Below, in pieces: positions 5,627 through 18,733 of a DNA stretch of 64,000 nucleotides (its first letter is position 1; each line of letters starts with the position of its first letter). This stretch comes from Enterobacter phage EC-F2. The translations under genes were made by a program, and so were the position numbers. The stretch lies in the sequence record MN508624.2; one strand, given 5' to 3'. The notes beneath the pieces are model-generated. The model did no database searches. It was not told the DNA's origin and was given only the letters and a program-made list of their open reading frames with translations.

Positions 5627-5965
5627 ATGAGCCGTGAAATTTTACTCCCTGCTGCAAATGCTGTTCATGCTGAAACAATGGAATACATGGAGAAATTCGT
5701 TGAACGCGATAACACCGCGATCATCACTCCTACTCACCTGGACGCGCTCGAAGATCGTCTTCATAAGCAGATTAAAGATCAATTCCCTGAAAAGGTTAGC
5801 CGCAACTTCATTCGTCAGGAAATCGTTGCAATGATGCTGAAACATTACGGCGTTGAAATCTTCGGTGTCGAACCACTGAAACCGAAGAAAGCACGTCAAA
5901 TGCCTAAACAGATCACCGACGAAGCAATCAAGAAATACCAGAAGAAATACGCTAAGAATAAATGA
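5627..5965 (+). CDS. hypothetical protein (112 aa)
   Basis: ORF immediately after redoxin gene. Confidence 0.45.
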   Translation: MSREILLPAANAVHAETMEYMEKFVERDNTAIITPTHLDALEDRLHKQIKDQFPEKVSRNFIRQEIVAMMLKHYGVEIFGVEPLKPKKARQMPKQITDEAIKKYQKKYAKNK

Positions 5966-7389
5966 TCTTTAATACGATTGAATGTGTTCCGTCAAGCGGT
6001 AAAACAAAGGCGATTCTGAACCATATCAATCAAACGGGCGAAAAAGCAATCATCGCTTCGATTTCCATGATGTTATCAAAACAGTCTTATGACTACTACA
6101 TCAACCAGGTAAAAGGGAAACGAGCGGTGATTGTGGACACGGATCACCGAACCAAAAGAACCAATAATGATGCGCTGCGTGAGGTTGTCAAAGATTATGA
6201 TGTGATCTTTATCACTCATGCAGCACTCAAAAACATTGATGACTTTGATTTGTATAAGGATTTTTCCCTGTATATTGACGAAGTTCCTGATTTGGTTGCG
6301 TTCGAAAGTCTGCGATTTAATAGCAATATCAAGCACATACGCGAGATTTGCTTGCCGTTTAGTTGCAATGCCGATGATATCGTTGATTTAAAACTTGACG
6401 AAGAAAAACGAGAACTGGTTACACGATTAGCCTATGATGGTCTTCGTAAACGTGATGATATCGCAATGAAGATGTTCCCGCTTTACCGTGCTCTGTTAGG
6501 GGCTATTCCGGTGAAGATGCAATGTAGCGATTCGGGATATGTCTGTTACTTCGTAGAGGATCATGACGTAAGCCAGTGGAAGTTCAAAAATGTAACCATT
6601 GCTTCATCCAACATCAAAGACACAATTACAGGGAAGATCCTGCAAACGTTTCATGATGTGGAGTTCAAAGATTCATCGCTTCAAAAGCTGGTTGACTTTA
6701 AGCAATACAAAAACACTGGGCGCATACATATACATGTGCTCGCAGAGGGGGATTATTCGCGTTATACGGGCGATCTCTCTCAATCTGGGACGACAGTATA
6801 CACCCAGATTAAAAAACGCGTGGAGGCGCTTCTAGGGGGCGAACAGTTCATCTACTGCACCAACACGTATCGATCGAAGTTTAGCGAGGGGCAAGAAATT
6901 CCGTATAACTCGCACGGATTGAACTTCTATTCGAGCTATACTAACGTGGTAGCATTATTCAGTTACAACCCGTTACCCTGGCTTCGTCAAATGTTGCGAG
7001 CGGTTGCGGTGTCCTCTGGACTCGAAGAGGAAGAATTAGTTGATGCTTATGTTGTCAGTAAATATTACGAACCAGCCTTTCAGTTATGCGCTCGTTCTGA
7101 TATCCGACACAACAACAGCAAACGAAAGATTAATTTATTTGTGCCTGATATGCGGTTAGCGAAATACATGAAGGAAAAATATTTTCCTGATGCCATTATC
7201 GAAACCACAGAAGCAGTTCAAACGAAAAGGCAACGCAAATCATTTCAAACCCTTTTCCAAATGACGGACAAAGAGAAAAACGCTTTTACGCCATACAAGA
7301 AAAGAAACAAATTAGATTATGCGAATCCTCTTCATCACGCGATTGTTAAAGATTGGCTGAACAATTACCGTGAGAAAAAGGCGACTTGA
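5962..7389 (+). CDS. P-loop NTPase (Walker A SSGKT, Walker B-like YIDEV), function unknown
   Basis: 475 aa; ECVPSSGKTKAIL Walker A, LYIDEVPD Walker B-like. Confidence 0.5.
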   Translation: MIFNTIECVPSSGKTKAILNHINQTGEKAIIASISMMLSKQSYDYYINQVKGKRAVIVDTDHRTKRTNNDALREVVKDYDVIFITHAALKNIDDFDLYKDFSLYIDEVPDLVAFESLRFNSNIKHIREICLPFSCNADDIVDLKLDEEKRELVTRLAYDGLRKRDDIAMKMFPLYRALLGAIPVKMQCSDSGYVCYFVEDHDVSQWKFKNVTIASSNIKDTITGKILQTFHDVEFKDSSLQKLVDFKQYKNTGRIHIHVLAEGDYSRYTGDLSQSGTTVYTQIKKRVEALLGGEQFIYCTNTYRSKFSEGQEIPYNSHGLNFYSSYTNVVALFSYNPLPWLRQMLRAVAVSSGLEEEELVDAYVVSKYYEPAFQLCARSDIRHNNSKRKINLFVPDMRLAKYMKEKYFPDAIIETTEAVQTKRQRKSFQTLFQMTDKEKNAFTPYKKRNKLDYANPLHHAIVKDWLNNYREKKAT

Positions 7390-7407
7390 TGGTCGCCTTT
7401 TTTGTTT
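7378..7407 (+). terminator. rho-independent terminator
   Basis: aggcgacttgatggtcgccttttttg overlapping the stop of the ATPase gene. Confidence 0.7.
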
Positions 7408-7414
7408 ATAAATA
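7407..7414 (+). promoter_or_regulatory. T4-type late promoter TATAAATA
   Basis: Exact TATAAATA 33 nt upstream of gp34 ATG. Confidence 0.7.
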
Positions 7415-7446: not shown

Positions 7447-10400
7447 ATGGTAGCTAAATCATTCCGCGCCACAAGTGGCCTTGATGCTGCTGGCGAAAAA
7501 GTTATCAACGTTGGTAAAGCATCGCGCTCCGTGTTGAGTGACGGCGTGAACGTTGACTTTTTTAACGAATTTAACACCGTACAACAGTACGATTCAACCC
7601 GTGGCTATGCTGCTTTCATGGCTATCATTTACGCGCGTCGTATCTGGTACGCTCGCGCTGATATCGCATCACCTGCGGGGGCTTTCGATGAAACAAAGTG
7701 GATCGCAACACGTAATGATCCAAAATGGGTATATAACAACGTAACCAATCCAGACGGCTTGCCTGTTGAGTCTGGTACGTACATGATGTGTGATGGGCGA
7801 TTCTCTGAACTATCGTACATTCTGCCAGATTCCCCGATTGAAGGTGATATTGTAACCTTTAAAGACGGTGGCGGTCTTGCTGGTGTCAACAGCATTCTGG
7901 TACGTTCAAACACTCGTCAGATCCGTCTGCGTGATATTCAGTCAAGCTCTTACCGACTGACTCACCCATATATGACCGTAGCGTTTATCTTCAACGGTAA
8001 CTTATGGCGTGTAGCGGAAATGCGTGATAACCGCGATTCTCAGTTTGTAAACGCAACTGGTTTGCTTCCTTTCCAAATGCAAGCGGGTATGGTAACATTC
8101 CGTAACAGCGGTACAGGTAAAATCACCCTCCAGTTGCCGAAGTATGCAAACGATGGTGATTCAATCACAACCTACGATCTGGATCGTCTTGCTTCGGTGA
8201 ACGTTGCGACTCTGCAAGTTTATCCCGGTAGCGGACACACGATCAGTTATGACGGTATCAATAACGTACCCTCTGTGACTTCACAGCGTTCCGGTTATGG
8301 TATTTTCATGTTCGATCAGGCTAATAACCGTTGGGTTGTTTATGACGGTGATCAGCGCGTTCGTCTGCGTCGTATCAGTGATGACCTGAACATGTTGCCG
8401 AACGATTACGTGTTCATCACTCCGATTGCTGTCAACCCACCAACTGTACGTAATGTAACGCTGACTCTTCCGCAAGATGTTGCAGAAGGTGATCGCGTAT
8501 ATATCAGTATGTACATGATGGGGAAAACGCAGAACTGTACAATCAAAGTTAAAGATGGTTCCGGTGAAAAGATCCGCACCAATAAAAACATGATGCAGTT
8601 CCCACAGCGTAAGGATTATCCGCCTGATGACTGGTTCAGTGTTGACTCTCTGACTTTCAACGCCGATACTGACTATCTTCCATATATGGAACTGTCATAT
8701 CTGAAAGCTACGAAAGAATGGGTAGTTGCACAGTATCGCCCGATCATTGAACGTGTCGATCCAACAAACCGTTCTCGTCTGGGTGTTATCGCACTGGCTA
8801 CACAGGCAGAAGTAAACAAAAACTGGGAAGATTTGCCGTCTGATGAACTGGCAGTAACCCCGCGCACATTGGCGAATAAAACCGCTACTGAAACGCGTCG
8901 TGGTATCGCTCGCCTGGCAACAACTGCGGAAGTTAACCAGAACACGACAGCAACCTTCCTTGATGACGTGATCGTGACGCCTAAAAAGCTGAACGAACGA
9001 TCAGCAACAGAAGATCGTCGTGGGGTGCTGGAAATCGCAACTCAGGCAGAAACAAACGCTGGTACTGATGACACTACCGCAATCACGCCTAAAAAGCTCG
9101 ACACACGCCGCGCGACCGAAACCCTAGCAGGTATCGGAAAACTCGTTACAACGGGGGCTACGACAGCGGAGGGGGCTTTACGTGGGGATGCTGGTACGAA
9201 CGTCTACAACTTCAATAACGGTGTTGATCTGATCACTCCGAAATCATTGAACGAGAAGACGGCGACCGAAAAGTCAAAAGGTCTGGTTGTTCTGGCGACT
9301 GAAAACGAAGTGGTGACTGGTGCTGCTGCGGGATCTGCTTCAATGCCGATCGTAGTAACTCCTGAAATGTTGCATCGCAAAACGTCTACTGAAACGCGTA
9401 TCGGATTGATTGAGATCGCAACCCAGACAGAAACGAACACGGGAACCGATGATCTTCGTGCGGTAACGCCTAAGAAGCTGAACGATCGCAAGGCTACTGA
9501 ATCGCTTGATGGTATTATTGCCCTCGCTACTACTGCGGAAGTTGCAGCAGGCACAGTGACGAATAAGGCAGTGGTTCCGGTTAAGCTGAAAGAGTTCTTC
9601 GACGTTACGAGTCATGTTGCGGTTGCAACTGCTGATGGTTTAACTCAGTCCGGTACTATCTGGACAACGATTAACCTGGGGATTGCGTCTGCTACTGAAA
9701 CACAGCGCGGTACTCTGCGCGTAGCGACTCAGGGTGAAACTGATGCGGGTACTCTGGATAACGTGGTTATCACGCCTAAGAAGCTGCAAGCGAAGAAAGC
9801 GACTGATACCGCCGAAGGTATTATTCGTTGTGCGACTAACGCGGAAGCGGGTGCTGGTACTGCTACTAACCTGGCAATTACTCCGGCTACCATGCAGTTC
9901 TTGAACGGTACTGATCCGGCATGGGGTGCAACGACAACTCGACGCGGTGCGGTGTTCATCACTACCAAATCGAATACGTTCATCGGTGATAATCTGGTTG
10001 GTTCTACTCAGCCCGTAGATAGCTATCTGGAAGATTTCTACGCTGTATCGCCTCGCGGTCTGAACTTTGCTCTACAAAACTTCTTACCGTTGAACGCAAC
10101 AGCACAGAACAGCCTGAAACTGGGCGGTGTGGTAGCTGCAAGCTGGATGCGTCGTGATGCAGATCAAACCGTAACGGGCAACAACACGTTCAACGGTACA
10201 AGCAACTTCGTTGGTAACGTAACCACTAACGGGACTCTGACGGCTAACGCTGCGGTAACTGTTAACAACACCGTAACCACGAACAATAACATTAACCAGT
10301 CTGCGAAAGCAAACACGGTTTATGCTAATACTGTTTTGAGTACAGCAACCGCTGGAACTAAAAACTTGCTTCGTACTTTCCGTGGTGGCGTGACGGATAC

Positions 10401-11106
10401 TACATGGCATGAAACTGTTCAGGGAACTACGTATCGCCTGGCAACTGGCACAACCGACACGACCGACGTTCTGACTGTTGGTGATGTATCTAACGGCACA
10501 ATGGCGTACTCCGGTACTACTCTGCGTCTGAATGGTAAAGCACTGGCTAACACGAACGCAACAGGTGATGTGACCATTGCAAGTGATGCAAGTCCTACGG
10601 TACAATTACGAACCGCTGCAACTAACGGTTGGAACGGTGTAACAATCAGTAATGATAACGGTGTGACTACTGCGACCGTGATCAACACCCGAAACTTTAC
10701 CCAGCATCTTGACAGTACCTATGTCAATACAGCGGGCGATACTATGACTGGTGCGCTGTCAGTTAGCGTAAACGGTACGGGTGGACGCTTTACCAGTGTG
10801 AGCGGTACGGCACATGTTCAGGCGGGTGATTTCTCTGGGAACGTCCAGAAAATGCGCTTAACTGGCATTGACGATAAGGTATTGACTGAGTTCAACATCA
10901 ATATCACCGATTACAACAAAGCGATGATCAACGGAAACCTGATTTATCATGCGGGTCGTCGTCCGACTCCTGCGGAAATCGGTGCTGTTGCGCTGGTGGG
11001 TTCAACCGTTGATACTCTGGTTGTTCGCGACTACATCAAAATCGGTAACGTGAAAATCTTCGCAAATCCAGTCACTAAGGCTTGTGAATTTGTGTGGGAG
11101 GAATAA
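7447..11106 (+). CDS. 34: long tail fibre proximal subunit
   Basis: 1219 aa; N-terminus MVAKSFRATSGLDAAGEKVINV...NTVQQYDSTRGY matches T4 gp34 N-terminus; internal ~30-aa phage tail fibre repeats; C-terminal IKIGNVKIFANPVTKACEFVWEE matches T4 gp34 C-terminus. Confidence 0.9.
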   Translation: MVAKSFRATSGLDAAGEKVINVGKASRSVLSDGVNVDFFNEFNTVQQYDSTRGYAAFMAIIYARRIWYARADIASPAGAFDETKWIATRNDPKWVYNNVTNPDGLPVESGTYMMCDGRFSELSYILPDSPIEGDIVTFKDGGGLAGVNSILVRSNTRQIRLRDIQSSSYRLTHPYMTVAFIFNGNLWRVAEMRDNRDSQFVNATGLLPFQMQAGMVTFRNSGTGKITLQLPKYANDGDSITTYDLDRLASVNVATLQVYPGSGHTISYDGINNVPSVTSQRSGYGIFMFDQANNRWVVYDGDQRVRLRRISDDLNMLPNDYVFITPIAVNPPTVRNVTLTLPQDVAEGDRVYISMYMMGKTQNCTIKVKDGSGEKIRTNKNMMQFPQRKDYPPDDWFSVDSLTFNADTDYLPYMELSYLKATKEWVVAQYRPIIERVDPTNRSRLGVIALATQAEVNKNWEDLPSDELAVTPRTLANKTATETRRGIARLATTAEVNQNTTATFLDDVIVTPKKLNERSATEDRRGVLEIATQAETNAGTDDTTAITPKKLDTRRATETLAGIGKLVTTGATTAEGALRGDAGTNVYNFNNGVDLITPKSLNEKTATEKSKGLVVLATENEVVTGAAAGSASMPIVVTPEMLHRKTSTETRIGLIEIATQTETNTGTDDLRAVTPKKLNDRKATESLDGIIALATTAEVAAGTVTNKAVVPVKLKEFFDVTSHVAVATADGLTQSGTIWTTINLGIASATETQRGTLRVATQGETDAGTLDNVVITPKKLQAKKATDTAEGIIRCATNAEAGAGTATNLAITPATMQFLNGTDPAWGATTTRRGAVFITTKSNTFIGDNLVGSTQPVDSYLEDFYAVSPRGLNFALQNFLPLNATAQNSLKLGGVVAASWMRRDADQTVTGNNTFNGTSNFVGNVTTNGTLTANAAVTVNNTVTTNNNINQSAKANTVYANTVLSTATAGTKNLLRTFRGGVTDTTWHETVQGTTYRLATGTTDTTDVLTVGDVSNGTMAYSGTTLRLNGKALANTNATGDVTIASDASPTVQLRTAATNGWNGVTISNDNGVTTATVINTRNFTQHLDSTYVNTAGDTMTGALSVSVNGTGGRFTSVSGTAHVQAGDFSGNVQKMRLTGIDDKVLTEFNINITDYNKAMINGNLIYHAGRRPTPAEIGAVALVGSTVDTLVVRDYIKIGNVKIFANPVTKACEFVWEE
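8755..9910 (+). repeat. about ten tandem phage-tail-fibre repeats (TPKKLn..AT(E/D)..G...LAT.AE) inside gp34
   Basis: Recurrent ITPKKLNERSATEDRRGVLEIATQAETNAG-type units in translation. Confidence 0.7.
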
Positions 11107-11111
11107 TTTAA

Positions 11112-12704
11112 ATGGCGAATAACGAATTTATGGCGTTATTCGGCCCTGATAGTTTCACGGCGAGTGTGTTTTCAGAAGCAAACGCCGTGAAATATCGCCT
11201 TGTTGTCCGTGGAACGAATAACGATTCTGCGGTCAACTCGGTTGAGGTATCTATTAACGGGGCTGATATTATTAACAGACGAACACAAGCTGCTCGCGGA
11301 ATTAACCTGGCTGTCATTGATGGAACAACTTTAGCATTATTGGATTACAAAGCATTCGATATGTATGGTGATCCTGCTACGAACGGGAATGCGATTAAAG
11401 ACTACCTGAATTCACTTCCAGCGAACAGAATTGTGTGTTTTTATACTTTCGATGCTATCAAAAGTGACGATAACTTTTTAGCAACAATGAGGAAAATAGG
11501 TTCTGTTGCGTGGCCTGAAACTCGGTTCTTTAATATCCCGATCACCACAACCAACTATTCTCACCGTTCATCCTATTCAGCTATCTATTCATCCACGATG
11601 AAAAAGATCTGTATGGAAAACTTTGTCGGTGGTTCTGGTAGTCTGAAAGACAATACAACGAGTTTTGTTGAAGTTGTGTTTGATGAATTCAGTGATATCG
11701 GGGTAACGGGTATTCCAGAAAGAATGGTTGATGATGTTCAGACATACCAGAACAGCGGGGATCTTTACGGCTTCCATACTTACGGGCTATGGTCAATTGG
11801 TAATGATGTTTATCTGGGTGATATCTTCAAATTCACTGGGGATTTGTATTGTTCTAAAGAACTCCGTGATGCTGGGGGAGAAGTTCACCTGTATATGTGG
11901 ACAGAAAACGGTAGCGGACAATGGATCACGTCATCCATTCTTCGAACAACCGGACTAGCCCCCGATCAGTGGCATTCGTTATCAGGATATTTCACCATCC
12001 CGACCGATCCGCTAAATGCTCGAATGGGTTCACAGGTATATCATTACCCGTCAACTGTTAAAGTCGGGCTGGCGCAATGTCGTAACGTCCAGATCACAAA
12101 AGTACCGCGTGAAGAAATAAACCGCAATGGTGCTGCTGTTGGTGTGAATGGTGTTAGAATGCAGACACTTTCCGAAGTGGATTCAAGCGGAAATGAAAAC
12201 CCGATTGATAAATTGCTTTCTCTGCCTGTTTCGCCTACTGGTGTTGTCAGTGATAAGAAAATCATTTCACATAACTTTGCTGAACTTGATTATATTGTTT
12301 CTGATCCGGTTGAATACACTTCAACCAGTACAACAGAATATCAGTTTAAAGAATGGACTGCTACCCAGCAAGCGGCGGTAACGAAAGCATCACTAAGCAG
12401 TTATGGCTTAAAAGCTGGTGATACGATCCGTATGCAATGCCAAATGAAACGCGATGCAAACGCAATCGCCAACAATAAAGGTGCATATATCGTAATGCAG
12501 TTCTGGGACGCGAATAATACGTATATTTCAGGGATCAACATGCGTGATGTTGGTACGATACCTAACGTATATTCATTCTATAAAAACGAAGGTGTTGTTC
12601 CTGCTGGGGCGGTTACTTTCGATTTCGGTTTATATCGTTATCCAAACAGCACAAACATCGGTACGGTATCCGCTAAAGACGTTAAACTGTCAATCGTGAG
12701 ATAA
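11112..12704 (+). CDS. tail fibre hinge connector, gp35-like (putative)
   Basis: 530 aa, position between gp34 and gp36-like gene, RBS GGAGG; assignment by synteny only. Confidence 0.5.
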   Translation: MANNEFMALFGPDSFTASVFSEANAVKYRLVVRGTNNDSAVNSVEVSINGADIINRRTQAARGINLAVIDGTTLALLDYKAFDMYGDPATNGNAIKDYLNSLPANRIVCFYTFDAIKSDDNFLATMRKIGSVAWPETRFFNIPITTTNYSHRSSYSAIYSSTMKKICMENFVGGSGSLKDNTTSFVEVVFDEFSDIGVTGIPERMVDDVQTYQNSGDLYGFHTYGLWSIGNDVYLGDIFKFTGDLYCSKELRDAGGEVHLYMWTENGSGQWITSSILRTTGLAPDQWHSLSGYFTIPTDPLNARMGSQVYHYPSTVKVGLAQCRNVQITKVPREEINRNGAAVGVNGVRMQTLSEVDSSGNENPIDKLLSLPVSPTGVVSDKKIISHNFAELDYIVSDPVEYTSTSTTEYQFKEWTATQQAAVTKASLSSYGLKAGDTIRMQCQMKRDANAIANNKGAYIVMQFWDANNTYISGINMRDVGTIPNVYSFYKNEGVVPAGAVTFDFGLYRYPNSTNIGTVSAKDVKLSIVR

Positions 12705-12727
12705 AGGGGCTTTCGCCCCTTTTTCAT
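12705..12727 (+). terminator. rho-independent terminator
   Basis: aaggggctttcgcccctttttc, followed by late-promoter-like cATAAATAc. Confidence 0.6.
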
Positions 12728-12755
12728 AAATACAGTCATTACAGGAGAAATTTTT

Positions 12756-14921
12756 ATGGCTGATTTGAAATTAGGTACAACGCTTGGTGGTGCGGGTATC
12801 TGGAGTGCTTCTAACCTTCCTCTATTGCCCTCTGGTGGACAATTAACGTATAAAGGCTGGAGAGTATACACAGAAAATGATCGACCAACAGCAGAAGATA
12901 TAAATGCCCTCTCGACGATTAACGGCGGGACTGTTGCAAAGAATACTACATTCAGTCAGAACGTGAATGTAGGGCAGGTGTTAACAGCAAATGATATTCT
13001 TTCTAATACTCGCGTACAAATTGCAAGAACAGGCGGTGCGGGTGCAAACTTAACATTTCGTCGTTATGACGTTACCGGAACCCCTTCTTCGGAAATTGGT
13101 ATCATGGATATCAACGTACACAACGGTTCAGGTCAGTTTGTTGGTGCATTTAACGTTAACGCACGTCCAGACGGCGGTAATAAAATATACTTCCGTGCAT
13201 ACAAAGATGGAACACAGAATACATTATTAACTATAGATTCTCAAACTCAACAGGTAACAGTTGAGCAAGGGTCTTTCCGTGTGATTGGGACTTCTGACCT
13301 CGGCGTGACGAACGCTGCATCAATGGCGGTTAGCGGTGCGGTAACTGCGAATACAGTAACCCCAGCAAATTGGGCTAACCATGATGAACGTTATATCACG
13401 GGTATTCCTCGCGGTATGTATGGAACAAGTTTCGGGGCTGCTGTTGTGACTGAAAAGAATGATGTTCTGACAGTAGGCGGTAACATCACCGACGGTCCAT
13501 ATGGTAACACTACGTATTACGGGCAGGTTGTCAACTATCGCCGTACACTGAATACTGGGGTTTCATTAGTTCAAACATACTTCGGGAACGAAATGTGGTT
13601 TCGTCTTGGATCAGGTTCTCCGGGTGCGTGGTCGTGGAACCAGGGTGATGCTAATGGCTGGCGACGTGTATACGATACGGTCACTCCACCAACTCCGGCA
13701 GAAGTGGGGGCAGTAAACAAAGCTGGTGATACCATGAGTGGTGTTTTAACCCTGGCGTCTACTGGTCAACCGCTTAAAACGCAAGGAGGCGGTATTTTTG
13801 CGAATGACGGAAACGTGTATATCAATAAAAGCGGATTTGCTGGATGGATTGATGCTTTATTCTTGAAAAATACAGGTGGTACTGTAACAGGAACAATTAA
13901 CCAGACAGGCGGGTATTTTGATACATCTACCGAAGGGAGAGGTTCATGGGCTTCACAAAACACCGCAAAAGCTCCAATTTTCCAAACCATTAACACAACA
14001 GCAACTTCCGAATACTGGCCTATTGTTAAACAGTATTACACACAAGCTGGTGGTGCTTGGTCTATGGGTACGTTGGTAAACACTAACCGATTTACCGTTC
14101 ATTACCGCACGAGTTCGGTAGATCGGCAGTGGTATTTTGACAATTCAGGTGAATTTGTATCATCTGGTGAAATTATTACCACCTCGGTAAACGGATTTCG
14201 TATCGCATATGGCAACACCGGATCATTTATTCGTAGTGACGGAAACAACACGTATTTCCTGTTGACAAATAGCGGTGATGTTTATGGTGGATATAACAAT
14301 TTGCGTCCGATTTATTACAGCAACACCACGGGTGCTGTTACAATGGGACATACGTTATCCGTTAATGGTCGTATTAGTCAATCTAGTAGTTATATCGACG
14401 ATGGACAATTATTGTTAAATGGTAGTGGTAGCGGACGTATAGATTTTATTCGCAGTGGTGCAAACCCTCGCGATATGACTATGTTCCATGCTGGTGATGC
14501 TTCTCGTGGAAACCGTATAGAACTTGCTGATACAACATCATATCTGGTTTATTTTGAGCGTCATCCGTCAAGTGGCATTCAGTTGGTAATGAACGGTAAT
14601 GGTAGTTTTAACGATGTATATATTCGTTCTGATGAAAGACTGAAAAGTAATTTCAGTAAGATTGAAAATGCATTGGATAAAGTTGATTTACTTGATGGTA
14701 TGGTGTACGACAAAGCAAATCATATTGGGGGTGAAGAAACTACCCGTGAGGCTGGTTTAGTCGCACAACAACTGCAAGAAGTATTACCGGAAGCCGTTAA
14801 GAAAGGTGTTGATGGTGAACAGAACGAGATCTTAACTGTTTCTTCTTCTGCTGTTATCGCCTTGCTGGTTAACGCGGTAAAAGAACTCCGTGAGGAAGTC
14901 AGGGAACTTAAATCCCGCTAA
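12756..14921 (+). CDS. distal long tail fibre protein with gp36-like N-terminus and C-terminal S74-type intramolecular chaperone
   Basis: 721 aa; N-terminus MADLKLGTTLGGAGIWSASNLPLLPSG matches T4 gp36 MADLKVGSTTGGSVIWHQGNFPLNPAG; C-terminal DVYIRSDERLKSN...AVKELREEVRELK is the auto-cleaving chaperone motif (SD-x-RLK) of endosialidase/T5 pb1 type. Confidence 0.8.
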   Translation: MADLKLGTTLGGAGIWSASNLPLLPSGGQLTYKGWRVYTENDRPTAEDINALSTINGGTVAKNTTFSQNVNVGQVLTANDILSNTRVQIARTGGAGANLTFRRYDVTGTPSSEIGIMDINVHNGSGQFVGAFNVNARPDGGNKIYFRAYKDGTQNTLLTIDSQTQQVTVEQGSFRVIGTSDLGVTNAASMAVSGAVTANTVTPANWANHDERYITGIPRGMYGTSFGAAVVTEKNDVLTVGGNITDGPYGNTTYYGQVVNYRRTLNTGVSLVQTYFGNEMWFRLGSGSPGAWSWNQGDANGWRRVYDTVTPPTPAEVGAVNKAGDTMSGVLTLASTGQPLKTQGGGIFANDGNVYINKSGFAGWIDALFLKNTGGTVTGTINQTGGYFDTSTEGRGSWASQNTAKAPIFQTINTTATSEYWPIVKQYYTQAGGAWSMGTLVNTNRFTVHYRTSSVDRQWYFDNSGEFVSSGEIITTSVNGFRIAYGNTGSFIRSDGNNTYFLLTNSGDVYGGYNNLRPIYYSNTTGAVTMGHTLSVNGRISQSSSYIDDGQLLLNGSGSGRIDFIRSGANPRDMTMFHAGDASRGNRIELADTTSYLVYFERHPSSGIQLVMNGNGSFNDVYIRSDERLKSNFSKIENALDKVDLLDGMVYDKANHIGGEETTREAGLVAQQLQEVLPEAVKKGVDGEQNEILTVSSSAVIALLVNAVKELREEVRELKSR

Positions 14922-14923
14922 TT

Positions 14924-14950
14924 AAAAGCCCTTCGGGGCTTTTTCTTTTT
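14924..14950 (+). terminator. rho-independent terminator
   Basis: aaagcccttcggggctttttctttttat. Confidence 0.65.
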
Positions 14951-14957
14951 ATAAATA
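14950..14957 (+). promoter_or_regulatory. T4-type late promoter TATAAATA
   Basis: Exact TATAAATA 27 nt before ATG 14984. Confidence 0.7.
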
Positions 14958-14983
14958 TCATAAAAGCATTTGAGGATCTAATA

Positions 14984-17197
14984 ATGGCAGATTTAAAAGC
15001 GGGTACTACCGTTGGCGGTAATACTATCTGGAGTCAGGCGAACTTGCCTTTGCTCCCTTCTGGAAACACAATCACATATAAAGGCTTTAAAATCTACACC
15101 GAAAACGATAAGCCAACAAAGGCAGAAATCGGATTAGGCAACGTAACGAACGATGCACAGGTGAAGAAAGCTGGCGACGATATGACCGGATCGTTGAACA
15201 TTACGGGCGCAAACAGTCAATTAACTGTTCCTTATCGTCTGTTGATGCAACGCGCGGTTGCTGGCGATCCGTATGTGTTATTTGTTCGTCCAGATAACAA
15301 CCCTGTATCAAACGGCTATCCGTCAAGCACTCTTCGAGTAATGACTATCACTGCACGTACCGCAACAACAGCAGATCCGGTTTCTGGTGCTAAACTGGCT
15401 AACGTATTAGCAGATCAGACAGCACAGGGTAACGGATCACTAACATTACAAGCATTTGCAGCCCCAAATACAACCACAGGCGCAAGCGGTGCGCGAACAG
15501 CAGAGATTTACCTAAACGGCAACGGTGAAATATCTTTTATCGGAAGTGGGCTGAACATTGGCATGACAACCAGGGTCAATGGTACTTTGTTTGGTACACA
15601 AATGGCAATCAAAGGAGATTCTAACCGAAATCTGTTCTTCCAGGATGCTGGTGGTAATGAACTCGGTTTGATCTATGCCGATACAGGAAAGAACTTATAT
15701 GTTCGTACTGGTGGCGGTGCATACGCAACCAGATTTGCATCTGATGGAACTTTAGTTCTCGCTAACCATCTAACTGTTCCTGGACAGGCTACATTTAATG
15801 GTCTGGGTGTGTTCAATAACCGTGCTTCTGTAGGCGTAGATTACGATTCACAAGGAACAAACTCAGCAATCCTTCGTATTGATACAAGCGGGGATGGAAA
15901 CGCAGTTGGTGATGGTGTTACTCACTTTGGATATAAAGACAGCAACGGACGATACAACCATTATTTCCGTGGTACTGGTTCGACTTTCATCAACACCAAA
16001 TTAGGTCTTAACGTAAACGTACCATCGTATTATAACGACGTTCCACAGGGCACACCAGCACAATATTTCTTGCCTACTGTTGGTCAGGGCGGGAAAAACT
16101 ATTTGCGTCAGTTCCGAGGCGGTAACGCGGACACAATCTGGCATGAAACTGTTCAGGGCGGTACTTATCGTTTAGCAACAGGTAGCACTGATGCGCAGGA
16201 AGAATTGCAGATCTCTACTGCTGGTTATATTCGAGGTCGTAACGAAATTCAATCGGCATCATGTGGTTCTGGTGGACAGTTCCGCGCGGTACAAGGAAAC
16301 TATGGATTCTTTATCCGAAATGATGGTGGTAACACCTATTTCATGCTTACTGAATCTGGAAACCCTTACGGCGCATGGGGTGATCTTCGCCCGTTGGTGA
16401 TTAGCAACGGCACTGGTACTGTGTCTATGAACAACGGTGTTAACGTTGGTGGTGGTTTGGATGTAAGCGGCGCTACTAAGTTCAGCAATGGTATCGGTTG
16501 TGGTACTCCAAACGGATTGGGCGCAAACGCGATATCACTAGGTGATACTGATACTGGTTTTGTTCAAGAAGGCGATGGTATTCTCAACGCTTATGCAAAC
16601 AGTCAACGAATCCAACGATGGACAACGGGGGCTACAGCAGTCTATAAGCAGTTGCAGGTTCAGGGTATTAACGGGCCAGCATTGCTTCTGAATAACACAG
16701 CAAGCAATCAGTCTGTATATATGCTGTTGCAATATGCAGGTAGTAACGCGGGTTATTTGGGTTTTGGTGGTTCTGATAATACCATGTCAATGCACAACTA
16801 TCAGACGAATACAACGATACAATTACGTACTTCCGATCTGTATATGAACCGTGCATTATATGGTGAAAGTACAGGCAACTTTACCGATGTGTATATTCGT
16901 TCGGATCGCCGTCTGAAATCAAATCTGGTTGAGATCAAAGACGCTCTGTTTAAAGTAGAACAGCTTACGGGCTATGTATACGATAAACAATCAAAAGACG
17001 CTGATGAAATTGTATATCACCGTGAATCGGGGTTGATTGCGCAAGATGTTCAGGAAGTATTGCCTGATGCAGTCAAAGAAGATCATAACTCAGGTATGCT
17101 TACGATTTCTCCTGCTGGCGTTAACGCGCTTCTGGTCAACGCAATTAACGAACTGCGCGAACGTCTGGAAGCAATCGAAAACAAATTAGGGGCTTAA
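14984..17197 (+). CDS. distal long tail fibre protein (gp37-like) with gp36-like N-terminus and C-terminal intramolecular chaperone
   Basis: 737 aa; paralog of the previous gene at both termini; internal NYLRQFRGGNADTIWHETVQGGTYRLATGSTD segment shared with gp34 C-region and T4 gp37; DVYIRSDRRLKSN chaperone motif. Confidence 0.8.
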   Translation: MADLKAGTTVGGNTIWSQANLPLLPSGNTITYKGFKIYTENDKPTKAEIGLGNVTNDAQVKKAGDDMTGSLNITGANSQLTVPYRLLMQRAVAGDPYVLFVRPDNNPVSNGYPSSTLRVMTITARTATTADPVSGAKLANVLADQTAQGNGSLTLQAFAAPNTTTGASGARTAEIYLNGNGEISFIGSGLNIGMTTRVNGTLFGTQMAIKGDSNRNLFFQDAGGNELGLIYADTGKNLYVRTGGGAYATRFASDGTLVLANHLTVPGQATFNGLGVFNNRASVGVDYDSQGTNSAILRIDTSGDGNAVGDGVTHFGYKDSNGRYNHYFRGTGSTFINTKLGLNVNVPSYYNDVPQGTPAQYFLPTVGQGGKNYLRQFRGGNADTIWHETVQGGTYRLATGSTDAQEELQISTAGYIRGRNEIQSASCGSGGQFRAVQGNYGFFIRNDGGNTYFMLTESGNPYGAWGDLRPLVISNGTGTVSMNNGVNVGGGLDVSGATKFSNGIGCGTPNGLGANAISLGDTDTGFVQEGDGILNAYANSQRIQRWTTGATAVYKQLQVQGINGPALLLNNTASNQSVYMLLQYAGSNAGYLGFGGSDNTMSMHNYQTNTTIQLRTSDLYMNRALYGESTGNFTDVYIRSDRRLKSNLVEIKDALFKVEQLTGYVYDKQSKDADEIVYHRESGLIAQDVQEVLPDAVKEDHNSGMLTISPAGVNALLVNAINELRERLEAIENKLGA

Positions 17198-17222
17198 TGC
17201 CCCTCTTTAAGAGGAATATTTT

Positions 17223-18035
17223 ATGGCTGTTGTAGGCGTACCTGGTTGGATCGGGTCTTCTGCTGTAAGCGAAACGGGTGAAAGATGGATGTCCGCTGCT
17301 GCGGGACAACTTCGATTATCTGCTGCTGGTTATATGTCACGATTTGCGGGGATCTCCCGCGAACAATCAATAACGATTTCCGCAAGCAACGCATACGCAT
17401 GGTCAACCCTGGTCAATCAGATTAAATCATTGGGTGTGTCCGGTGGTGCATTCAAAATTACTGTTGTCGGGAACATCGTTTCAAGCAGTGCTGGTGCTCC
17501 GTGCCTTAACTTCACATCTGATCTTGCGGGTGTTGATTATATTGAACTGATCATTAACTCTGGTGTAGGTGTTATGGGTCGTGGTGGTGCGGGTGGTGGT
17601 GATAACACAGGTGGCGCGTATTCATCCGGCGAAAATGGTGGTGTCGGTATTACTAACGCGATCGGAAACAAACTGCGAATAACGAACAATGGTTATATTG
17701 CGGGTGGTGGTGGTGGTGGTGGCCTGGTAAACATGCCAACTTCTACATCACGACGTGTACAGGTATCCGGTGGTGGTGGTCGACCTTTCGGTGCTGCTGG
17801 TACAGGTGGTTATGACGGTAACGGTACAGCGGCAACAATTTCCGCTCCTGGTTCCGGTGGTTCTTCGAGTCTATCACAAGCTGGTGCGGGTGGTAACTTA
17901 GGTGCGGCTGGTCAATATCCACCTAAAGCCGATGGTCGTCTGGAAGCTCAAGCGGCGGGTGCTGCGGGTGCTGCGGTTAACGGTAACGCGCCAACGTGGA
18001 GAACTGTAGGGACAATTTACGGTTCGAGAGTTTAA
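17223..18035 (+). CDS. 38: T2-type receptor-recognising adhesin gp38 with glycine-rich motifs
   Basis: 270 aa; MAVVGVPGWIGSSAVSETGERWMSAAAG matches T2 gp38 MAVVGIPGWIGTSAVAETGQRWM; polyglycine GRMs (GGGGGGG) separating variable segments. Confidence 0.85.
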   Translation: MAVVGVPGWIGSSAVSETGERWMSAAAGQLRLSAAGYMSRFAGISREQSITISASNAYAWSTLVNQIKSLGVSGGAFKITVVGNIVSSSAGAPCLNFTSDLAGVDYIELIINSGVGVMGRGGAGGGDNTGGAYSSGENGGVGITNAIGNKLRITNNGYIAGGGGGGGLVNMPTSTSRRVQVSGGGGRPFGAAGTGGYDGNGTAATISAPGSGGSSSLSQAGAGGNLGAAGQYPPKADGRLEAQAAGAAGAAVNGNAPTWRTVGTIYGSRV

Positions 18036-18088: not shown

Positions 18089-18733
18089 ATGGCGCTATTA
18101 CAAGATAAATTGGCGGTGCTTGAACGGGTAATATCGTTCATCATGGCGGTCAAAACATGGAAACAGTTATTCATTAAATTGGTTCTTATCGTCACTATTT
18201 TCATTATGTTCGTAACATGGTACAAGTGGGATGACTTATTTTCAGTCTGGAAAACATCTTCAAGCGTTATAGACGTGCCGACGATGGAGATTGAAAAGGC
18301 AAAAAAGTTTGAATCCGCATCCATCGAACAGTTAAACATAGTGCATTTAACTACGGGTGCGGATTTTTCGGCAATCTTTGGGTTCAGACCTAAGAATGTC
18401 AATTATTTTGTTGATATAATTGCGTATGAAGGGAAGTTACCGCAACAGATTAACCCGAAAAATCTGGGTGGCTATCCTATAGACAAGACATCGGAAGAGT
18501 ATAATAGACATATAAACGGGCTGTACTATATCTCAGATATTGCAAGCCCGTATCTTCCAACAAAAGACCTTGTTCCGGTAGCATATACCTTTAGTTGTCC
18601 TTATTTCAATCTAGAAAACTACTATTCTGGATCGATTCTAATGGAATGGTATATACAGAAGCCCGAAGTCACCGATACGAAGTTGATGATCGTGTGCAAT
18701 CAGGCCGCTAGAATTTTAGGCAGGGTTCGATGA
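18089..18733 (+). CDS. t: holin
   Basis: 214 aa, single N-terminal TM; ...FESASIEQLNIVHLTTGADFSAIFGFRPKNVNYFVDIIAYEGKLP...CPYFNLENYYSGSILMEWY...ICNQAARILGRV matches T4 gp t almost motif for motif. Confidence 0.9.
   Translation: MALLQDKLAVLERVISFIMAVKTWKQLFIKLVLIVTIFIMFVTWYKWDDLFSVWKTSSSVIDVPTMEIEKAKKFESASIEQLNIVHLTTGADFSAIFGFRPKNVNYFVDIIAYEGKLPQQINPKNLGGYPIDKTSEEYNRHINGLYYISDIASPYLPTKDLVPVAYTFSCPYFNLENYYSGSILMEWYIQKPEVTDTKLMIVCNQAARILGRVR

Follow-up and report, generated by a model that had tools for sequence, protein, structure and literature searches.

Two distal tail fiber proteins with predicted self-cleaving chaperone domains in the long-tail-fiber locus of Enterobacter phage EC-F2

In most T-even-like phages, the distal tail fiber protein gp37 cleaves itself and the adhesin gp38 then docks on the fiber (PMC9569957); gp38 attaches as a monomer after this cleavage (PMC9569957; also a 2026 preprint on Klebsiella receptor-binding proteins). 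We analyzed a 64,000-nucleotide stretch of Enterobacter phage EC-F2 (MN508624.2), referred to here as the window, in which two distal fiber genes, pA and pB, precede a gp38 gene. The window holds the long-tail-fiber locus of a Pseudotevenvirus (RB43 group, Straboviridae), and we found that both fiber proteins end in an S74-type intramolecular chaperone domain. Self-cleaving chaperone biology is already described for gp37 of the T2, T6, S16, and RB49 types, and this core finding is a correct rediscovery. The remaining question is why the genus carries two such fiber genes.

The gp37-gp38 tip of phage S16 (PDB 6F45; Dunne et al. 2018, cited in PMC7917993) shares with pA and pB a C-terminal chaperone of the self-cleaving type and the motif S-D-x-R-(I/L)-K. 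Its gp38 is monomeric and combines an N-terminal attachment domain that bears Trp with a receptor domain of the polyglycine kind, and the window gp38 matches this chain (6f45_D) with an E value of 1.1e-30. S16 keeps gp36 as a separate protein and has one gp37, whereas in the window the gp36 N-terminal domain is fused to the fiber protein, which exists in two versions. The cut in S16 is preceded by LNVS and the predicted cut in the window by VYIR.

The chaperones of K1F endosialidase, GA-1 gp12, and T5 pb1 (3GW6, 3GUD, and 4UW8) belong to the same Pfam family as those of pA and pB. As in the window, a Ser-Lys dyad with the Lys at +5 lies at the extreme C terminus of a trimeric fiber or spike. 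The folds of 3gw6 and 3gud are the same as that of the pA domain (Foldseek probability, 1.0), and the sequence identity in structural alignments of this group is just 13 to 19%. The window differs from these three systems in that their mature C terminus binds the receptor or acts as the enzyme by itself, with no adhesin added.

Phage T4 resembles the window in its gp36 N-terminal domain, in internal gp37-like and gp34-like shaft segments, in the holin gene t downstream, and in a gp57A homolog in the genome (of EC-F1 and RB43). In contrast, T4 gp37 has no S74 domain, binds the receptor with its own needle tip, and needs an unrelated, chaperone-type gp38. Within the genus, RB43 has the same layout as the window: 34, 35, two distal genes of ~740 to 810 codons, 38, and t. 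Trojet et al. (2011, PMC3157838) noted this "duplication of g37" and called its function unclear; their paper did not report a gp36 N terminus and a complete S74 domain on both copies. RB43 gp38 is of a 174-amino-acid type and the window gp38 is of the 270-amino-acid, glycine-rich T2/S16 type, with the same N-terminal domain. The pA copy of the RB43 reference is frameshifted, whereas that of the window is intact.

Both distal fiber proteins end in an S74 chaperone domain

A preliminary description of this DNA, made from the sequence alone, had proposed that two fiber paralogs share an autoproteolytic chaperone motif. We found the motif in both proteins, as DVYIRSDERLKSN at pA residues 620 to 632 (nucleotides 14613-14651) and as DVYIRSDRRLKSN at pB residues 635 to 647 (16886-16924). 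The two Ser codons lie where they had been placed, with TCT for Ser625 of pA at 14628-14630 and TCG for Ser640 of pB at 16901-16903, and the interval given for the first domain (14598-14921) is in frame. The start given for the second, about 16870, holds as an approximate position but is one base out of frame; the codon begins at 16871. The catalytic Lys codons follow at +5 from each Ser, at 14643-14645 (Lys630 of pA) and 16916-16918 (Lys645 of pB). A six-frame scan of the window with the pattern S[DE]x[RK]LK returned these two sites and one match broken by a stop codon.

A hidden Markov model (HMM) search for Peptidase_S74, which the preliminary description had suggested as a check, matched both C termini over the full Pfam model (PF13884, positions 1 to 58 of 58). 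The match covers residues 625 to 682 in pA (E = 7.2e-14, 52.3 bits) and 640 to 698 in pB (E = 6.6e-14, 52.4 bits), where the gathering cutoff is 22 bits. PF13884 is also precomputed on every pA ortholog in public protein databases. The S16 gp37 crystal chain 6f45_A was matched by pA (E = 5.4e-8) and by pB (E = 4.5e-8), and when 26 orthologous copies were combined into a profile, it reached 6f45_A (2.4e-16), the MyRF ICA domain (2.5e-7), and also 3gud, the GA-1 chaperone.

Structure prediction agreed with these matches. The AlphaFold2 model of pA residues 601 to 721 (121 residues) had a mean pLDDT score (predicted local distance difference test) of 84.5, with values of >90 for model residues 25 to 121. 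When this model was compared with the PDB using Foldseek, the best 11 matches were all chaperone domains (7dc3, 3gw6, and 3gud), the first being 7dc3 (E = 5.6e-6; template modeling [TM] score, 0.61). As modeled, the pA domain has the chaperone fold, a helical bundle with a beta-hairpin "tentacle." Predicted beta-strands reach residue 613 of pA, just before the chaperone. The AlphaFold2 monomer of full-length pA was poor (pLDDT, 56.6; predicted TM score, 0.27), and its PDB search gave gp34 and Mu fiber matches, with 3gw6 only weakly matched (E of about 0.07).

Both S74 domains run to the stop codons and follow Gp34_trimer or gp37_trimer segments. We concluded that both C termini are S74-type intramolecular chaperone domains, one of 97 residues in pA (Ser625-Arg721; 14628-14918, plus strand) and one of 98 residues in pB (Ser640-Ala737; 16901-17194, plus strand). 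A chance occurrence of the motif is ruled out by the HMM E values and by conservation.

We assessed conservation in 13 Pseudotevenvirus genomes: the window, leE, RB43, UPEC03, Miller, EC-W2, vB_EcRAM-01, PF-CE2, HMGUkp1, Invicta, Banach, Nando, and Kp_GWPR59. V-Y-I-R-S-D and the Lys at +5 were invariant in all 26 paralog copies. The Ser, Asp, and Lys were likewise invariant in a set of 37 sequences that also took in prophage fibers and canonical gp37 proteins from other genera. In both pA and pB, conservation was high over the first ~60 residues and in the chaperone, and variability was greatest distally in the mature shaft, with the lowest mean pairwise identities at pA residues 328 to 600 (0.26) and pB residues 447 to 635 (0.15). 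The pA chaperone was the best conserved part of the locus (0.84 to 0.92). By sequence, this looks like the usual pattern of a conserved assembly module beside a host-facing variable region.

The pA chaperone is 60 to 65% identical to those of several Escherichia coli T-even phages, compared with 50% to that of pB. The tip and chaperone of pA (14628-14918) thus resemble canonical gp37 proteins from other genera more than they resemble the pB chaperone (16901-17194), which suggests that the two C-terminal modules may have had separate recombination histories.

Predicted cleavage, gp38 docking, and folding helpers

The preliminary description had placed the cut between Ser and Asp of the motif. 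The homologous sites in T5, S16, and the fPS phages point instead to the Arg-Ser bond, one residue N-terminal. T5 pb1 is cut between Thr1263 and Ser1264, so that the Ser departs with the chaperone, and the same is reported for K1F (PMC4690869). S16 is cut at DLNVS^SDRRIKK, and for the fPS phages the predicted cut is DVYIR^SDGRLKI (PMC7917993); the DVYIR tip of the fPS phages is identical to that of the window paralogs. In addition, the crystallized GA-1 chaperone chain 3gud_A begins with SDERHK. From these comparisons, the cut is most likely at DVYIR^SD, between Arg624 and Ser625 of pA (14625-14630, plus strand) and between Arg639 and Ser640 of pB (16898-16903, plus strand), and it would free fragments of 97 and 98 residues.

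We propose the following maturation. Three chains would join through the C-terminal chaperone, and trimer folding of the shaft would be nucleated from that end. In a correctly formed trimer, Ser625 of pA or Ser640 of pB, activated by Lys630 or Lys645, would cut the preceding Arg-Ser bond. This would free the 97- or 98-residue chaperone and leave a mature fiber tip ending in ...VYIR, on which monomeric gp38 would dock through its conserved N-terminal domain with two Trp residues. As both pA and pB begin with the knee-proximal N-terminal domain of gp36 and a separate gp36 gene is absent, each would be a complete distal half-fiber joining gp35, and the two would be alternative halves and not segments in series. 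We consider this whole picture, of pA and pB as self-cleaving S74 fibers, capped by gp38 and forming two alternative distal halves, the best explanation of the data and put its probability at roughly 85%.

The gp38 gene (17223-18035, plus strand) encodes a glycine-rich protein of 270 amino acids and starts 25 nucleotides after pB, with no promoter in the intergenic sequence. The preliminary description had called it a T2-type adhesin, and the matches to Pfam GP38 (1.3e-48) and Gp38_N (2.1e-17), together with that to 6f45_D, bear this out. It had also implied folding independent of a chaperone-type gp38; the gene at this position belongs to the adhesin family and not to that of the T4-type chaperone. 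Among the 13 genomes, 21 of the first 26 gp38 residues are identical, including Trp9 and Trp22. The same N-terminal segment pairs with ...NVYIR^SD tips in canonical phages: in the Tequatrovirus Lutter, gp37 ends with this tip and gp38 begins with MAIVGVPGWIGESAV.ETGQRWM. Docking of gp38 on pB is very likely. Within the genus, comparing tip types with gp38 N-terminal types for covariation was uninformative, as VYIR and the gp38 segment are invariant or nearly so.

The gp38 proteins of the genus carry this nearly invariant N terminus of ~26 residues on two unrelated receptor domains, which gives a 270-amino-acid, glycine-rich T2/S16 form and a 172- to 174-amino-acid RB43 form. In this respect, gp38 offers a clean example of adhesin module swapping.

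The preliminary description further held that the fibers fold independently of gp57A. This part was not supported, since the near-identical phage EC-F1 keeps a gp57A homolog. The EC-F1 gene encodes 87 amino acids, lies beside the homolog of gene 1 (deoxynucleoside monophosphate kinase), the position of 57A in T4, and matches phrog_1002, "tail fiber chaperone" (E = 1.3e-25). It falls outside the 64-kb window and was identified in EC-F1 by synteny and PHROG; a megablast search with RB43 gp57A did not reach EC-F1. The RB43 homolog is RB43ORF197c, between 57B and gene 1, and it is annotated as 57A in RB16. In recombinant work on the S16 fiber, gp57A was reportedly coexpressed.

It is nevertheless conceivable, if somewhat doubtful, that distal fiber folding needs neither gp57A nor a gp38-type helper and that the fibers' own chaperones suffice. 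The locus has an adhesin where a T4-type gp38 chaperone would stand, and the intramolecular chaperones of T5 and K1F are sufficient for trimerization (PMC4690869). Retention of gp57A in EC-F1, RB43, and RB16 argues the other way. However, T4 gp57A also serves gp34 and gp12 (PMC7289586), so that retention of the gene is no proof that it acts on pA and pB and no proof that it does not. Gene content cannot decide gp57A dependence either way.

Fusion architecture and the arrangement of the two fibers

pA occupies the "gene 36" position (12756-14921, plus strand; 721 amino acids), and pB occupies the "gene 37" position (14984-17197, plus strand; 737 amino acids). In a protein database comparison, pA was 100% identical to an EC-F2 protein. 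We found that both begin like T4 gp36, over residues 1 to 106 in pA (39% identity, E = 1e-19) and 1 to 48 in pB (56% identity, E = 2e-16). Further along, pA residues 394 to 478 resemble T4 gp37 residues 685 to 780 (E = 8e-16), with Gp34_trimer at 439 to 521, and pB residues 275 to 345 resemble T4 gp37 residues 339 to 408 (E = 4e-14). The domains of pB are Gp34_trimer, gp37_trimer (PF20744, 22.0 bits), and S74. Identity between pA and pB is 58% over the first 62 residues, 49% in the Gp34_trimer-like segment, and 50% in the chaperone region; the two are thus true paralogs only module by module. The locus has neither a separate gp36 gene nor a gp36-sized open reading frame (ORF), and neither pA nor pB has a gp37-type N terminus. 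By these alignments, both paralogs are fusions of a gp36 N terminus, a gp37-like shaft, and a chaperone, in a locus without a separate gp36 gene, an architecture that is new. With N termini 58% identical, pA and pB should bind the same partner, gp35.

Serratia phage X20 (Winklervirus) offers a contrast. It has a normal gp36 (219 amino acids) and a single gp37 with a gp37-type N terminus beginning MATLKPIQFKRSK, and the last 155 residues of that gp37, the tip and chaperone, are ~70% identical to pA. Its relative, Serratia phage LC53, has a gp37 with a pB-type tip at the same position. The pairings in X20, LC53, and Lutter indicate that the pA tip is an ordinary terminal tip associated with gp38. 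X20 therefore combines a canonical gp36 and gp37-type N terminus with one fiber and two adhesins, whereas the window has two fused fibers and one adhesin. The X20 adhesins share the attachment segment MA(I/V)V(G/N)VPGWIG...RWM with the window gp38. They are two tandem gp38-type proteins of 171 and 168 amino acids (X20 locus L018, 5000-6202) behind the single gp37.

An Enterobacter cloacae complex assembly (GCA_050031365.1, contig JBLGVX010000003.1; locus L017, 7001-9427) contains a natural pA::pB hybrid of 808 amino acids. This 175-kb Pseudotevenvirus contig carries gp34, gp35, the hybrid as its sole distal fiber gene, gp38, and the holin. The crossover lies within a YLRxFRGG..D.IWHETVQ segment common to both paralogs. 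The contig indicates that one fused distal subunit is enough. A search of viral contigs with pB gave no confirmed relative.

Taken together, the fusion architecture, the separate late-promoter-like sites and upstream hairpins, the comparison with X20, and the hybrid genome favor two alternative distal half-fibers over a serial pair. More specifically, and tentatively, the virion may carry two kinds of half-fiber on one gp34-gp35 scaffold, each matured by its own chaperone and both capped by the single gp38; we regard this particular form as possible but short of probable. Since both tips would expose the same VYIR-type docking surface, one gp38 could cap both kinds.

Several observations weigh against the best explanation given above, of self-cleaving, gp38-capped fibers that form alternative halves. 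The fold model covers the pA chaperone, to which the pB region is 50% identical. T5 has a folding sensor, in which Arg1250 from the neighboring chain and Asp1239 form the oxyanion hole (K1F/T5 mechanism); conserved Arg and Asp residues also lie upstream in pA, and R587 and D573, for example, do not vary among its orthologs, but assigning sensor roles to such residues would take a trimer model. The conservation of VYIR could reflect a constraint at the cleavage site instead of a docking surface, and docking of gp38 on pA, to which the similarity of the tip sequences points, is plausible. In the literature we found no virion proteomics or fiber structure for Pseudotevenvirus fibers or for EC-F1 and EC-F2. 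Finally, pA may be dispensable. In the RB43 RefSeq genome (NC_007023; locus L003, 11230-11300), the reading frame of the pA ortholog shifts by -1 at about codon 21: MADLKLGTTLGGAAIWSASNL meets a stop, and the coding sequence annotated as "gene 36" begins at a non-ATG codon farther downstream, in another frame. In UPEC03 (MW250785; locus L004, 5910-6090), an 89-bp perfect tandem duplication in the N-terminal region breaks the frame and splits the pA ortholog into ORFs of 62 and 714 amino acids, in a record labeled "partial genome."

These two disruptions would also fit a locus in which only pB and gp38 work, with pA redundant or decaying, dispensable or unincorporated, and its cleavage site of little meaning. 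The RB43 record agrees in marking genes 34, 35, and 37, and not 36, as "essential," and the hybrid genome agrees in making do with one distal gene. We consider this unlikely. pA is intact in 11 of the 13 genomes, no other part of the locus is as well conserved as its chaperone, in which the catalytic residues are invariant, and the distal shaft of pA is hypervariable, as is typical of receptor-facing regions. It also has its own late-promoter-like box, an upstream hairpin, and a second hairpin just downstream. Both disruptions come from a long-passaged laboratory strain or a "partial genome" record, and they may reflect laboratory loss, sequence error, or an assembly artifact.

Gene order and the database names "small" and "large distal subunit" would suit a serial fiber, gp34-gp35-pA-pB-gp38, in which pA is an enlarged "gp36" whose VYIR tip, once the chaperone is cut off, binds the N terminus of pB. 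The lengths would suit it too, as mature pA and mature pB add up to 1263 amino acids and T4 gp36 and gp37 to 1247, and so would the presence of only one gp38 gene, coupled to pB. However, pB itself begins with a gp36 N-terminal domain (56% identity to T4 gp36) that is 58% identical to that of pA, and it lacks the gp37-type N terminus by which canonical gp37, such as that of X20, joins gp36. The pA-type tip in X20 is terminal and associated with gp38, and a natural genome carries a single pA::pB hybrid gene. Moreover, Trojet et al. (2011, PMC3157838) took the size of RB43 fibers to mean one gp37 trimer per fiber. A serial arrangement is accordingly improbable. Least credible of all is that the S74 domains have stopped cleaving and stay on the mature fiber, given that Ser, Asp, and Lys are invariant over 26 copies and across genera, that an uncleaved chaperone would block the tip needed for gp38 binding, and that T5 pb1 left uncleaved is nonfunctional in competition assays (PMC4690869).

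The surrounding locus and what the two fibers may mean

The fiber genes lie on the plus strand in the order gp34, gp35, pA, pB, gp38, and holin t. Over 12756-18035 (5.3 kb), the sequence is 99.1% identical to that of Enterobacter phage EC-F1 and 80 to 90% identical to those of ~60 other Pseudotevenvirus genomes. The gp34 homolog, the proximal half-fiber (7447-11106, plus strand; 1219 amino acids), is an ORF syntenic with genes annotated as gp34 in RB43, leE, and Miller. The gp35 homolog, the knee or hinge connector (11112-12704, plus strand; 530 amino acids), matches phrog_1154, "long tail fiber protein proximal connector" (E = 8.7e-179). The holin t lies at 18089-18733 on the plus strand. Directly upstream of gp34, at 5962-7389, is a conserved 475-amino-acid protein of unknown function (phrog_2467; no Pfam match), which is syntenic in RB43, leE, and Miller and is not obviously a fiber component.

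The gp35 homolog is longer than that of T4 (530 versus 372 amino acids) and carries an ILEI/PANDER-like insert at residues 62 to 132 (approximately nucleotides 11295-11507; Pfam E = 2.4e-12). The ILEI/PANDER-like fold is elsewhere associated with carbohydrate binding. Across the 13 genomes, gp35 has a mean column identity of 89%. The enlarged knee might be relevant if two distal fibers attach there.

pA and pB are each preceded by a terminator-like hairpin and a late-promoter-like site. Upstream of pA, at 12705-12732 on the plus strand, we read a terminator-like hairpin, GGGGCtttcGCCCC, with a T run, followed by a near-consensus T4 late-promoter box, CATAAATA, at 12725-12732; in phage Miller, a terminator is annotated at the equivalent position of this hairpin. 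Upstream of pB (14924-14957, plus strand), a terminator-like hairpin with a T run at 14924-14943 is followed by the exact box TATAAATA at 14950-14957. The exact octamer occurs at two sites in the window, 7407-7414 and 14950-14957, ~30 to 35 nucleotides 5' of the gp34 and pB start codons. Because this count matches the chance expectation for the window (mean of 2.0 in shuffles), only the positions of the sites are suggestive.

Proteins listed until now as "hypothetical" or as "small" and "large distal subunit" can be described as predicted self-processing fibers with mature ends at Arg624 and Arg639. The phages concerned infect Enterobacter, Klebsiella, and Cronobacter, and the genus is used therapeutically. 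Constructs made to produce recombinant receptor-binding proteins or to engineer host range must retain the chaperone and coexpress gp38. If two kinds of half-fiber do share one scaffold, the virion would have a mixed fiber set, or a knee that branches at the enlarged gp35, and the hypervariable shafts would differ. This would be a device for bet-hedging or dual specificity at the level of the fiber, of a sort not described for T4-like phages, and the mirror image of Serratia phage X20, with its one fiber and two adhesins. Through the fused architecture, the comparison with X20, and the single-gene hybrid, the 15-year-old question of the duplicated g37 in RB43-like phages becomes a concrete, testable model, in which two alternative half-fibers would share one adhesin.

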